Below, one piece after another: positions 45,895 through 55,651 of a stretch of DNA of 64,000 nt. Position 1 is the stretch's first letter; every line of letters begins with the position of its first letter. The position numbers were made by a program, and so were the translations under genes. The stretch lies in the sequence record LR999871. One strand, written 5' to 3'. The notes under the pieces are model-generated. The model was given only the letters and a program-made list of their open reading frames with translations, searched no databases and had not been told where the DNA came from. The stretch is from Escherichia phage vB_Eco_Jura.

Positions 45895-45918
45895 GGAGGC
45901 TCCTCGGAGTCTCCTTTT
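45895..45918 (+). terminator. rho-independent terminator
   Basis: Stem GGAGGCTC/GAGTCTCC (one G-U) with loop CTCG, then TTTT; 13 nt after the 45882 stop. Confidence 0.5.
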
Positions 45919-46473: not shown

Positions 46474-46481
46474 TCTCTATA

Positions 46482-52672: not shown

Positions 52673-53512
52673 ATGCCTGTTCTTAAAGTGATGTTCCATA
52701 AAGACACCAACGTAGCTACTGTACTGGATGCCAGTGGTAGCCTTAGTGATGGTTCCGTTGAGGTGGGTACTTTCCATCATCCTGATGAAACCTATCCCGA
52801 TAGTGTAACTATCTATCATGGTGTACGTGACCTGCTGTATAAACGCAGTGCTAAAGACCCATCTCAAACTGCTTCTTACCCAAATAACATTATCAATATG
52901 CAAGTTATCAGTATTGATATGAAGGCAACTCCTCGCCTGATTTTGGGTACTGCATTGCCTCGTGTAATCTCTACTATTGAAGGTAAAGATGTAACCTGGC
53001 ATGTAGATGTTGCTGGTGGTAAAGCACCATTGACTTACAAGTGGCAGTTTAAAGCTAATACTGTAGGTGCTGCTTTCGCTGATATTGATTCCGGAGAGAA
53101 TCCTACAGCTAAAACTGCAACTCTTATTAATCATGCAGTAACTGCTGAATCTGCTGGTACTTATAAAGTCATCGTTACTGATGCTAACGGTACTACTATC
53201 GAGAGTTCTTCTCTGCTGGTTGTAGGAGTTCAGGAACCACCTGAAGTAGCTTCTATTGTTGCTTATCCAAGTCCACTGGCTCTATCAGTAGCTGATGATA
53301 TTACCAATGGTAAAACAGTTAAGTTTTCTTCCCTGCCTGCTGGCTCTTTGATTGGTACTCTGTCCATTAAGACCCAGCCTGACAGTGGTAAAGCTACTGC
53401 TGAGATTAGTGGTAATGTACTGACAGTTAAACCTGTAGCCGCAGGTGACACTACTGTAGTGGTCACCAACGGAACCAAGGAAGTAACTGTTACGGTTAAT
53501 GTTACAGAGTAA
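52673..53512 (+). CDS. Ig-like domain protein, capsid decoration candidate (279 aa)
   Basis: Track ATG at 52640 has no SD; ATG at 52673 follows GAGGAAA. Thr/Val/Ser-rich beta-strand pattern (VTAESAGTYKVIVTDANGTT; VTNGTKEVTVTVNVTE) typical of Ig-like (BIG2-type) domains. Confidence 0.6.
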   Translation: MPVLKVMFHKDTNVATVLDASGSLSDGSVEVGTFHHPDETYPDSVTIYHGVRDLLYKRSAKDPSQTASYPNNIINMQVISIDMKATPRLILGTALPRVISTIEGKDVTWHVDVAGGKAPLTYKWQFKANTVGAAFADIDSGENPTAKTATLINHAVTAESAGTYKVIVTDANGTTIESSSLLVVGVQEPPEVASIVAYPSPLALSVADDITNGKTVKFSSLPAGSLIGTLSIKTQPDSGKATAEISGNVLTVKPVAAGDTTVVVTNGTKEVTVTVNVTE

Positions 53513-53533
53513 TGTGATTGTTTTTATGAATGT

Positions 53534-53556
53534 AGCCCTCCTTGTGAGGGCTTTTT
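53534..53556 (+). terminator. rho-independent terminator
   Basis: Stem AGCCCTC/GAGGGCT, loop CTTGT, then TTTT. Confidence 0.65.
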
Positions 53557-53581
53557 AGTATCTATAGGAGAGTAAATAATT

Positions 53582-53896
53582 ATGGCTAATAAGAACCGTC
53601 TTCGTGTATGGCATATCCCTCAAGTACCCGGCAAAGCCTTCTATGTTGAAGTAGATTCAGTAGAAGAAGGTGTACGTATCATTGATATACTAGCCAACTA
53701 TGACCTATTCCAGTATGAGAACAATATCAAAGGTGATTACTGCAATGTCTCTGGTTTACAGATGTATGATGAACATATCACTGATGATGAAATGGAAGAG
53801 ATGGGTCTGACTGACCGTTGGGTAGACTGGTACTATGAAGATGACCAGAGCTTTTTTGATAACCCGAAAGAGTATTTGAATAATCTCAAGAAGTAA
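53582..53896 (+). CDS. acidic protein (104 aa), function unknown
   Basis: ATG preceded by AGGAGAG; Asp/Glu/Tyr-rich C-terminus. Confidence 0.6.
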   Translation: MANKNRLRVWHIPQVPGKAFYVEVDSVEEGVRIIDILANYDLFQYENNIKGDYCNVSGLQMYDEHITDDEMEEMGLTDRWVDWYYEDDQSFFDNPKEYLNNLKK

Positions 53897-53936
53897 TTTC
53901 TTGGGGTTAATGACCCTTATTAATTCCTTATCCTTT

Positions 53937-53959
53937 GCCCTCCTATGGAGGGCTTTTTT
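53937..53959 (+). terminator. rho-independent terminator
   Basis: Stem GCCCTCC/GGAGGGC, loop TAT, then TTTTTT; the ORF-track start at 53935 lies inside this hairpin and is rejected. Confidence 0.7.
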
Positions 53960-53970
53960 ACGGAGTACAA

Positions 53971-54177
53971 ATGTTTAAGTTCTTAGACCTTATCTGGGCA
54001 GTCATTTTGCTGGTTGCTACAGGCTTTGTATATGGCTTCTTGCTCCCATCAATGATGTCTGCTTTAGACAGCATCATTGTTGTTATGGGCTTGATAGTCT
54101 GTATTGTGTGGCCTCTTATCGTAGGCCGTATCGTTTATCTTACAGTTAAGAAAAGGATGAGAAGAAAACATGTATAA
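53971..54177 (+). CDS. small two-TM membrane protein (68 aa), partner of the SPFH gene
   Basis: ATG preceded by ACGGAG; two hydrophobic helices and a basic C-terminus (KKRMRRKHV); 3' end overlaps the SPFH gene start. Confidence 0.5.
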   Translation: MFKFLDLIWAVILLVATGFVYGFLLPSMMSALDSIIVVMGLIVCIVWPLIVGRIVYLTVKKRMRRKHV

Positions 54178-55006
54178 GTACATTGCAGTAGCAATTGCAG
54201 GGCTAATCATTGCTCTAAGTTTAACGAGCTGCTATGACCGAGTTGAACCAGGTAATGTAGGTATTATCGTTAATCGTCTCGGTGAAGATAAAGGTGTGGA
54301 AAATGAGGTTAAAGGTGTAGGCCGTTACTGGCTCACTTGGAATGAAGAACTTTATACATTCCCGACCTTTAAGCAGATGAAGACCTATGATGGTCTGTTT
54401 TACTTCCAACTGTCTGATGGTACTCAGATAGGCCACCAGATGGCTATCAGCTATAAAGTGAACCCTACTAAGGTAACTAATATCTTCCAGACGTATCGTA
54501 AGGGAGTTAATGAAATTACCGAGCAGGATTTACGACAACGTATTGCTGATGTACTTAACAGACAGGGTAACCTGATTAACACTGATACATTTATTGATGG
54601 TGGTAAATCTAAGCTACTGGATAGTGTCACTGACACAATCCGTAAAGAGATGGAACCAGTAGGGATTGATATTATTGCTATCTCCTGGATTGGTGCTCCT
54701 GAATACCCTGATAATGTTAAACGTGCCATTAATGCCAAAGTAGAAGCTACTCAGAAAACTCTGCAACGTGAGCAAGAGATTCAGCAACGTGTAGCTGAAG
54801 CTAATATGGAACGTGAACAAGCTAAGGGTGTAGCAGATGCTATCCTGATTAAAGCTAAAGCAGAGGCTGATGCTATTCGTTTACGTGGTGAAGCACTCAC
54901 CGAGAACCCAAATGTAATGCAACTGGAAGCCATTAATAAGTGGAATGGTACATTACCTACCACAATGATTCCTGGGGCTACTACACCTTTCGTTAATGTG
55001 AAATAA
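54170..55006 (+). CDS. SPFH/band-7 (stomatin/prohibitin/HflK-C-like) lipoprotein
   Basis: N-terminal lipoprotein signal IAGLIIALSLTSC; SPFH-type core (VEPGNVGIIVNRLGE ... ISYKVNP) followed by an Ala/Glu/Gln-rich coiled coil (QREQEIQQRVAEANMEREQAKGVADAILIKAKAEADAIRLRGEA). Confidence 0.6.
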   Translation: MYKYIAVAIAGLIIALSLTSCYDRVEPGNVGIIVNRLGEDKGVENEVKGVGRYWLTWNEELYTFPTFKQMKTYDGLFYFQLSDGTQIGHQMAISYKVNPTKVTNIFQTYRKGVNEITEQDLRQRIADVLNRQGNLINTDTFIDGGKSKLLDSVTDTIRKEMEPVGIDIIAISWIGAPEYPDNVKRAINAKVEATQKTLQREQEIQQRVAEANMEREQAKGVADAILIKAKAEADAIRLRGEALTENPNVMQLEAINKWNGTLPTTMIPGATTPFVNVK

Positions 55007-55013
55007 CTAAGCA

Positions 55014-55042
55014 AACCCACCATTACGGTGGGTTTATTTTTT
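55014..55042 (+). terminator. rho-independent terminator
   Basis: Stem AACCCACC/GGTGGGTT, loop ATTAC, then TTATTTTTT. Confidence 0.7.
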
Positions 55043-55068
55043 GAAGTTATCTAACACTGGGTATTCCT

Positions 55069-55293
55069 ATGAAAGTAAATATTTTACGCCGTAAGAAAGT
55101 TCCTTTCTTTCAAATCAATTGTGGTTCATGCTTTCAACACGATGATGACTACTATATGAAGTGTAGTTATCAATCCAAAGAACACTTCTATGGTGTGAAT
55201 TTACAAACAGGTCATCTGTTCACATTTGATAATAATGACTTTGTTTATCCTGTGACCTTAGAAGCATGTATTCCTGACCCATTTAATAAATAG
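55069..55293 (+). CDS. hypothetical protein (74 aa)
   Basis: ATG-initiated; weak SD; Cys/His-containing. Confidence 0.45.
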   Translation: MKVNILRRKKVPFFQINCGSCFQHDDDYYMKCSYQSKEHFYGVNLQTGHLFTFDNNDFVYPVTLEACIPDPFNK

Positions 55294-55294
55294 T

Positions 55295-55651
55295 ATGGCT
55301 CAAGAAAAGAATCGTCGTCAGACACTTATCGAACGTATTCAGGCCAGAATCAAATTACAGGACTTAGGCTATACCGTTAATGGTCAGCCTAGTCTCTGTC
55401 ACATCTGGACTGGTTCACATTCAGGTAATGGACGTGGTGGGCAATATGGCAGGATTTCCGTGAATGGAGTTACCTCTGCAACTCACATTATTGCCTATAC
55501 CCATTATCATGGTTATATCCCCAATAAGATGCAAGTAGACCATCTCTGTAATAATCGTCTGTGCTGTAACCCTGAACATCTTGAATTGGTTACTCACCAA
55601 GAGAACCAGAGAAGAAGGGCTAAGCGTTCTAAATCTAAAGGAAATAAATAA
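55295..55651 (+). CDS. HNH endonuclease (second copy)
   Basis: ATG 2 nt after the upstream stop; HIWTGSHSGNGRGGQYGRISVNG ... VDHLCNNRLCCNPEHLELVTHQENQRR is a typical HNH nuclease core with a basic tail. Confidence 0.7.
   Translation: MAQEKNRRQTLIERIQARIKLQDLGYTVNGQPSLCHIWTGSHSGNGRGGQYGRISVNGVTSATHIIAYTHYHGYIPNKMQVDHLCNNRLCCNPEHLELVTHQENQRRRAKRSKSKGNK

Follow-up and report, generated by a model that had tools for sequence, protein, structure and literature searches.

Two adjacent genes of Escherichia phage vB_Eco_Jura (LR999871), which correspond to gp19 and gp20 of phage N4, appear to encode an accessory, translationally coupled membrane module. They occupy positions 53971–55006 of the analyzed window, a 64,000-nucleotide stretch of one strand of this record read 5′ to 3′, to which all positions given without another accession refer. 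In our reading, to which we give a slightly better than even chance, gp20 is a lipoprotein of the SPFH (stomatin/prohibitin/HflK-C-like) family that would assemble on the periplasmic face of the inner membrane, gp19 is its small membrane partner, and the role guessed for the pair is a protective one.

The gp19-gp20 locus

The window comes from the species Escherichia phage N4: a megablast search with positions 53500–55400 matched 15 genomes at 98.5–99.6% nucleotide identity over the full query. Compared with the RefSeq N4 genome (NC_008720), the locus is 98.6% identical at the nucleotide level across 1.9 kb, the gene order gp17–gp22 is kept, and the gp20 protein is 99.6% identical to its N4 counterpart. 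In that record gp19 is labeled 'membrane protein' and gp20 'lipoprotein', with gp18 on one flank and gp21/gp22 on the other. The gp19 open reading frame (ORF) runs on the plus strand from the ATG at 53971 to the TAA at 54177 (68 aa), preceded by a Shine–Dalgarno sequence read as GGAG (53962–53965, plus strand, 5 nt 5′ of the ATG). The gp20 ORF follows on the same strand from the ATG at 54170 to the TAA at 55006 (278 aa). Its start codon sits within the 3′ end of gp19 (ATGTATAA), and the 8-nt overlap of start and stop is a layout typical of translational coupling. An earlier reading of the sequence alone had described exactly this arrangement, a 68-aa protein with two transmembrane (TM) segments overlapping the start of a 278-aa lipoprotein, and both ORFs were indeed found.

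Comparison of isolates showed that purifying selection acts on the ORFs, as gp20 differs from that of reference N4 by 16 synonymous codon changes and one nonsynonymous change, and from that of PMBT57 by nine synonymous changes and none that alters the protein. The GC content of gp19-gp20 (0.40–0.42) equals that of the neighboring genes and bears no signature of horizontal transfer. We also observed that gp20 holds 17 of the approximately 20 nucleotide differences between N4 isolates in a 1.5-kb stretch (16 of the 17 changed codons being synonymous), while gp18 and gp19 show 0–1 differences. The divergence of gp20 is thus locally raised under purifying selection, possibly through allele exchange.

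gp20, a predicted SPFH lipoprotein

The gp20 protein (N-terminus MYKYIAVAIAGLIIALSLTSC) begins with MYKYIAVAIAGLIIALSLTS followed directly by Cys21. Its signal peptide (aa 1–20) and lipobox LTSC (54170–54232, plus strand; Cys21 at 54230–54232) meet the pattern [LVI][ASTVI][GAS]C, and the lipobox cysteine is nearly invariant (at least 90%) across 12 divergent phage homologues. With such a signal peptide and lipobox, gp20 should be exported and lipid-anchored at Cys21, which would leave the remainder of the protein in the periplasm. In the mature N-terminus Cys21 is followed by Tyr and Asp at positions +2 and +3.

The SPFH/Band 7 domain (54239–54799, plus strand; aa 24–210) was detected by Pfam Band_7 (PF01145) with an E-value of 1.7e-23 and a score of 84 bits (gathering threshold 23.6), over profile positions 2–175 of 176. 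The protein also matches phrog_200 'lipoprotein' (E 6.8e-95). We modeled gp20 with AlphaFold2 (AF2) as a monomer, from a 25-sequence alignment (mean predicted local distance difference test score, pLDDT, 76). The model consists of a signal-peptide helix (aa 2–18), an alpha/beta SPFH core (aa 19–178), a single long uninterrupted helix (aa 181–245; 54710–54904, plus strand), a short helix (aa 249–256) and a low-confidence tail. The long helix corresponds to the segment that forms the coiled-coil wall in SPFH cages and aligns to the coiled coil of prohibitin-2; among homologues it differs in length by 11-residue indels. The C-terminal tail (54905–55003, plus strand) carries the motif K-W-(N/D)-G-x-L-P, of which W258, G260 and P263 are invariant in the alignment of divergent homologues. 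This motif is located where cellular SPFH proteins close their cages, and the tail is a candidate cap or oligomerization segment.

Foldseek searches of the gp20 model against the PDB gave full-length matches over 240–300 columns with probability 1.00 and E-values of 1e-13 to 1e-8. Matched were the human prohibitin complex (8rrh, E 1.3e-13), HflK/C (7vhq, 7wi3, 9cz2), erlin1/2, stomatin, QmcA-YbbJ (8z5g), flotillin and the major vault protein; sequence identity to prohibitin and HflK/C is just 16–18%. A profile built from the 12 divergent phage homologues retrieved prohibitin first (E 3.7e-13, residues 14–256), then erlin, HflK, HflC and QmcA. The SPFH core and coiled coil proposed earlier were therefore borne out by Pfam, the AF2 model, Foldseek and the family profile alike. 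Judged from the model, gp20 is a genuine SPFH protein, belongs to the prohibitin/HflKC branch and shows the full protomer plan of cage-forming members, and its long helix and conserved KW(N/D)GxLP tail are compatible with a cage. Like prohibitin (PHB1/PHB2) and HflK/HflC, it has, over its full length, an N-terminal anchor, the SPFH core, a long coiled-coil helix and a C-terminal segment. It differs from them in that the anchor would be a lipid-modified cysteine left by signal-peptide cleavage instead of an N-terminal TM helix, and in that a single gene stands where the cellular systems have a heteromeric pair.

Several GenBank and UniRef homologues of gp20 bear the name 'serine protease'. We could not support this name, as Pfam detected Band_7 alone in gp20 and no protease domain. 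It seems to be a mis-annotation that has spread between records and may derive from 'membrane protease subunit, stomatin/prohibitin homolog'.

The likeness to HflK/C raises an alternative for the role of the protein, namely that a phage cage mimics HflK/C, binding or displacing host FtsH or competing with HflK/C on the periplasmic side, and so alters the turnover of FtsH substrates or shields phage membrane proteins. HflK and HflC are among the nearest solved relatives of gp20, hflC is its best NCBIfam match, and gp20 would share the topology of HflK/C, its soluble part being predicted to face the periplasm as theirs does. Homologues also lie in the early-left region beside xis/int of Stx lambdoid prophages; in lambda, the early-left region carries the FtsH inhibitor cIII. 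Such mimicry has been invoked in published annotations of prophage copies (PMC10269572, PMC4936722). Yet the score of gp20 against the HflC equivalog TIGR01932 is 19.6 bits, compared with a cutoff of 134.4, so that by sequence gp20 does not qualify as an HflK/HflC orthologue, and prohibitin is closer than HflK/C in the profile search. Moreover, most carriers (N4, Kayvirus, crAss, Vequintavirinae) are strictly virulent and face no lysogeny decision, and the family is also present in phages of Gram-positive hosts. We consider HflK/C mimicry unlikely.

A two-helix partner encoded upstream

The gp19 protein contains two hydrophobic 19-residue windows, aa 7–25 and 34–52, with Kyte–Doolittle means of 2.4 and 2.7. 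A short turn joins the two segments, and the C-terminus is basic (KKRMRRKHV). By the positive-inside rule, this tail predicts an inner-membrane hairpin with both termini in the cytoplasm. The protein matches phrog_1130 'membrane protein' (E 2.7e-20). Very large databases, when searched with gp19 alone, yielded only two and five relatives, since so short a query cannot reach useful E-values in collections of that size; it was synteny that brought the family together. Its alignment keeps Y21, P26, S30, V37, G40 and largely P48, and the conservation sits at the end of the first TM segment, in the short turn predicted to be periplasmic (consensus P-x-[ML]-[IV]-S-x-x-[DS]) and at the start of the second TM segment.

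To survey the partner, we used 80 IMG/VR loci with gp20 relatives of at least 60% identity. Under a strict hydropathy threshold, a two-TM ORF of 57–78 aa ended at −20 to +3 nt relative to the SPFH start in 74 of the 80 loci. It was visible in four more (78/80), truncated by an insertion in one and degenerate in the last. By alignment, these partners are homologous to gp19. Beyond this set, the gp19 family adjoins the SPFH gene in a P1-like phage, SSU5-like phage-plasmids, Stx prophages (which leave it unannotated), an Alcaligenes N4-like phage and a crAss-like phage, and lies one to three genes upstream of it in Vequintavirinae and Bruynoghevirus, whose SPFH identity to gp20 is given as 35–58% and also as 29–35%. 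The family recurs in at least nine phage lineages. Since the pairing is kept across such distant phages, it is functional and not accidental, which upholds the association of the SPFH gene with a small membrane protein as first proposed.

The sequence-only reading had further taken the partner to be of NfeD type, and here our results disagree. Searches for an NfeD/OB fold gave no match at E≤0.1 for gp19 and none at E≤1 for ten family members (gp19 and nine relatives), and a 68-aa protein with two 19-residue TM segments has no room for an NfeD OB domain. As in the SPFH–NfeD operons (QmcA-YbbJ, Pyrococcus PH1511-PH1510, Bacillus FloA/FloT), a small membrane gene is tightly linked to the SPFH gene and the linkage is conserved; unlike in those operons, the partner lacks the NfeD domain, and the SPFH part, cytoplasmic in QmcA, is predicted to be periplasmic in gp20. 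The resemblance is one of logic, not ancestry.

Some loci deserve separate mention. In Kuttervirus PhiSH19 (JN126049), an unannotated 69-aa two-TM ORF lies directly upstream of the SPFH gene (about 74932–75139, minus strand), and in the Stx2a phage Stx2_EH1846 (LC567840) an unannotated 62-aa ORF of the gp19 family does so (about 1755–1944 of the fetched locus). One 347-aa protein, P0074, in which partner and SPFH protein are fused, was examined as Rosetta-stone evidence and set aside: compared with an unfused locus (L003, 1733–2777), the fusion locus (L101, 1501–2544) has a 1-nt deletion in the A7 run at the SPFH ATG. Two samples share the deletion, which must be a frameshift allele or else a sequencing error. 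The plp ('putative lipoprotein')/upl genes of P1 were also rejected as a version of this pair, plp being 125 aa long, on the other strand and unrelated. As plp/upl are not homologues, the P1 CRISPRi non-essentiality data (PMC10695390) do not apply to gp19-gp20. Only some P1-like phages (e.g. Ro157c2YLVW) carry the SPFH pair at the plp/upl position.

No conserved third gene was found beside the pair across the fetched lineages. This bears on a second alternative, in which the SPFH protein is a generic scaffold of membrane microdomains that aids the insertion, secretion or assembly of phage envelope proteins and has no role in exclusion or protection. Bacterial flotillin/SPFH scaffolds organize secretion and signaling complexes, the family has a broad host range, and a scaffold of this kind was proposed for Kayvirus MbpS and the secretion of Tgl (PMC7150955). 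The lack of a companion gene conserved with the pair speaks against it, however, as does a periplasmic location, which restricts the possible clients, and we give this explanation little credence. As a side observation, one SSU5-like phage-plasmid contig carries two genes of the HdeA family of periplasmic acid-stress chaperones (664–1409), inserted close to the DNA polymerase gene and separated by a few kb from the SPFH pair.

Distribution in phages and earlier descriptions

In a tblastn search, gp20 had matches in 722 of the 50,697 phage records, and in 673 of these the match spanned 80% or more of the query. Among the carriers are Staphylococcus Kayvirus (275 records come from Staphylococcus), Pseudomonas Bruynoghevirus, Caulobacter CbK-like and Burkholderia phages, Vequintavirinae and Ounavirinae of Erwinia, Klebsiella and Salmonella, crAss-like, Lak and P1-like phages, and Stx-converting prophages. 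Structural matches in BFVD add Rhizobium, Vibrio (N4-like pVa5) and Streptomyces phages as well as giant viruses. Among N4-like phages, the gene was found in Enquatrovirus, Petruschkyvirus, Erwinia S6 and Pastis, GIB1 and pVa5. Seemingly bacterial homologues at 60–65% identity lie on elements of about 110 kb with genes for DNA polymerase III alpha, gp32, RecA and Rep3, which is consistent with SSU5-like phage-plasmids. Where the neighbors are annotated, the SPFH loci typically sit amid early, replication or recombination genes (N4, SSU5-like, Vequintavirinae, crAss). The gp20 family is thus accessory and patchy across unrelated phage families, and it is not a core gene of N4-like phages.

The sequence-only reading had regarded the pair as a feature not described in N4-like phages. 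This turned out to be incorrect, since gp19/gp20 entered GenBank with the N4 genome record and SPFH is annotated in sister isolates: PMBT57 names gp20 a 'putative SPFH domain protein' and VEc25 an 'SPFH domain-containing protein'. Both families are already held in PHROGs (phrog_200 and phrog_1130), and the SPFH lipoprotein of N4-like GIB1 has been discussed, with its role called unclear (PMC13239085). Outside N4-like phages, SPFH matches were reported among novel ORFs of T4-like phages (PMC1524935, 2006), a conserved SPFH-domain protein in PhiSH19 (PMC3220722, 2011), Kayvirus MbpS as stomatin-like by HHpred with a suggested role in secretion (PMC7150955, 2020), and an HflC-like moron in Burkholderia CSP3 (PMC10269572). 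In Vi01-like Sajous1, an 'SPFH band 7 lipoprotein' appears with three mass spectrometry retrievals as a table count (PMC10892097). Within the literature library searched, we found no paper that joins SPFH with N4 itself. Kayvirus MbpS, the Vi01-like protein, the ORFs of T4-like RB43, 44RR and Aeh1, and the GIB1, pVa5 and PHROG 200 proteins belong to the same family as gp20 and usually have a small membrane ORF upstream. They differ from the N4 case in that the upstream partner varies with the lineage and in that the Gram-positive members cannot be periplasmic.

Membrane location and proposed role

In 77 of the 80 IMG/VR homologues the mature N-terminus reads Cys-Asp-Arg. Asp at position +2 is the classical Lol-avoidance signal of E. 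coli and leads to retention in the inner membrane. If the Cys-Asp of the relatives is taken along with the coupling of gp20 to a hairpin protein of the inner membrane, an SPFH assembly on the periplasmic face is the most economical picture. By analogy with these relatives, the most likely product of the pair is an SPFH ring that sits on the inner membrane and faces the periplasm.

We propose that gp20 subunits form a ring or cage where HflK/C also lie, at the periplasmic surface of the inner membrane, with the lipid anchor replacing the N-terminal TM helix of the cellular proteins. The gp19 protein may touch gp20 through its periplasmic turn. It could either supply in trans the TM 'palisade' that the lipid-anchored gp20 lacks or be a client enclosed by the cage, and the assembly would fence off a patch of inner membrane during infection. 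Our best guess is that the inner membrane of the infected cell would thereby be protected, by blocking genome delivery of superinfecting phages or by stabilizing the membrane in the latent period, which in N4 lasts hours. The patchy, accessory spread of the family and its placement amid early, replication and recombination genes favor a role in protection or exclusion. There is precedent in T4 Imm and TP-J34 Ltp, a small inner-membrane protein and a lipoprotein that block incoming DNA; exclusion membrane proteins are made early in infection, and T4 Imm is similar to gp19 in size and in its two-TM topology. More broadly, the known exclusion proteins (T4 Imm and Sp, P22 SieA, HK97 gp15, TP-J34 Ltp, T5 Llp) resemble the pair in being small inner-membrane proteins or lipoproteins with an accessory, patchy occurrence; they differ from it in that we detected no sequence or profile similarity and in that none has the SPFH fold. 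The superinfection-exclusion system of N4 is still unidentified (PMC12642591), which makes the gp18–gp20 cluster a reasonable candidate.

A number of observations weigh against the proposed assembly or its protective role. The AF2 model of gp20 covers the monomer only, and the tail that might close a cage has a pLDDT of about 50. The gp19-type partner is not universal, as the protein encoded upstream has one TM segment in Kayvirus (MbpV), three in CbK-like phages and two in PhiSH19, where a basic inter-helix loop suggests the opposite topology. N4 and its nearest relatives read Cys-Tyr-Asp/Glu at the mature N-terminus, with Tyr and not Asp at +2. In a 1999 study, Seydel and colleagues reportedly saw aromatic +2 residues keep a model lipoprotein in the inner membrane, and for N4 itself inner-membrane retention would follow by analogy with the homologues and with that reported case. 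Neither gp18, gp19 nor gp20 matched a PADLOC defense model, and in Pfam and PHROGs gp19/gp20 matched just SPFH, lipoprotein and membrane-protein families and none of the named exclusion families. The papers that mention the phage SPFH family report no functional test of a verified gp20 homologue; in the CRISPRi-ART study, N4 was used for rII tests only and not genome-wide. Finally, more than 60 spontaneous rapid-lysis mutants of N4 include none in gp19/gp20 (PMC12642591).

The Tyr at +2 is the starting point of a third alternative, in which gp20 is an outer-membrane lipoprotein that acts at the surface or receptor in the manner of T5 Llp or phi80 Cor: it would mask NfrA, the receptor of N4, or alter the outer membrane, and gp19 would have a separate function. 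Receptor-blocking phage lipoproteins are a known class, and by the simple +2 rule the CYD of gp20, which lacks the Asp, predicts Lol transport outward, so that an outer-membrane location of the N4 protein is possible. An SPFH protein of a Pasteurella prophage island, PM0222, was moreover found in outer-membrane vesicles and acts as a TLR1/2 agonist (PMC9872710), its kinship to gp20 being only putative. Against an outer-membrane role stand the inner-membrane signal Cys-Asp in 77 of 80 close homologues, the tight coupling to an inner-membrane hairpin protein kept across lineages, the homologues in phages of Gram-positive hosts, which have no outer membrane, and the lack of any Llp/Cor family similarity in Pfam and PHROGs. 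We regard this explanation as very unlikely.

In a fourth alternative, an SPFH assembly might control lysis timing by restraining a holin-like gp19 or the lysis machinery, and so feed the lysis inhibition and large burst of N4. The gp19 protein has a weak, non-significant match to a holin family (E 0.044). In Kayvirus, MbpS and the upstream one-TM MbpV, which 'resembles holins', are encoded between lysK and tgl in the lysis region (PMC7150955), and lysis inhibition in N4 has yet to be traced to particular factors (PMC12642591). However, the holin match is far under threshold, the N4 pair lies far from the lysis cassette gp60–63, and the rapid-lysis mutants map to gp61, gp63, vRNAP, the terminal repeat or single miscellaneous sites. 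The absence of gp19/gp20 alleles among them argues against a required role in lysis inhibition, and control of lysis by the pair seems to us quite improbable.

Returning to the protective module, a bolder form of it would hold that the gp19-family hairpin and the SPFH lipoprotein are a widespread, unrecognized phage 'membrane shield', in which a cage on the periplasmic face blocks genome delivery by later phages, and that in N4 the pair is the exclusion system thought to feed lysis inhibition. This extension is speculative and, in our estimation, unlikely to hold as a whole. If true, no SPFH cage before it would have had a defined viral function, nor a TM ring provided by a separate protein.

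Flanking genes and transcription units

Upstream of the pair lies gp18 (53582–53896, plus strand; 104 aa), a P22-gp17-like protein by Pfam (PF17420 GP17, E 2.4e-56) and phrog_1510, which NC_008720 labels 'superinfection exclusion, similar to P22 gp17'. The order gp17-like gene, small two-TM ORF and SPFH lipoprotein was observed only in N4 and Kuttervirus PhiSH19 among about 100 fetched loci; the PhiSH19 homologue of gp18 (within JN126049, 72500–77000) is 56% identical. As gp18 is adjacent to the pair solely in these two phages, we discarded it as a general third component, and its co-occurrence is no evidence for the role of the pair. Downstream, gp21 (55069–55293; 74 aa) shows a sub-threshold similarity to a zf-UBP-like zinc finger (E 1e-3; 19.8 bits vs. 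a cutoff of 22.7), and gp22 (55295–55651) is an HNH_3 homing-type endonuclease (E 8.6e-20). In N4, a second HNH endonuclease (gp25) is annotated some 1.5 kb beyond. Compared with the N4 reference, the window is circularly permuted; the left end of the reference would correspond to approximately position 45915 (window 53971 equals N4 coordinate 8057), and the terminal-repeat junction should lie inside the window.

The pair was said earlier to be bracketed by its own terminators. Terminator-like hairpins do flank it on both sides. The upstream element (53937–53959, plus strand) has a hairpin with a 7-bp GC-rich stem and a 3-nt loop (53937–53953; RNA fold −15.8 kcal/mol, z about −2.6) and a T6 run that ends about 11 nt 5′ of the gp19 ATG; it closes the gp18 unit. 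The downstream element (55013–55042, plus strand) has a hairpin with a 9-bp stem (55013–55035), 6 nt past the gp20 stop, followed by a T-run (RNA fold −14.3 kcal/mol, z −4.0; none of 200 shuffles was as stable). Comparable plus-strand sites follow gp16 (52594), gp17 (53534) and gp18 (53937), with further ones at 46481, 47924, 59023 and 60744, and between 46000 and 64000 (18 kb) we counted 31 plus-strand hairpin/T-run sites compared with 10.4 expected from shuffled sequence, an approximately threefold excess. As such sites follow many single genes in this arm, short terminator-delimited units are the rule there and not a peculiarity of gp19-gp20. No sigma-70-like promoter was found in the 17 nt that separate the upstream hairpin from the start of gp19, the nearest consensus match lying within gp18.

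Significance of the module

Several genome papers note the same SPFH family in phages, and the sequence feature by itself changes nothing. Homologues of gp20 are carried by over 700 sequenced phages, whose hosts are Gram-negative as well as Gram-positive, and are usually tied to a small membrane protein. Cellular SPFH proteins have been seen by cryo-electron microscopy, from 2022 to 2026, to form membrane cages, and a compact, lipid-anchored viral SPFH protein whose partner has 68 aa would lend itself conveniently, as a minimal system, to the study of cage formation and sequestration. The remaining interest thus lies in a widespread, compact phage SPFH module with a conserved two-helix partner, for which N4 offers an easy system for testing.

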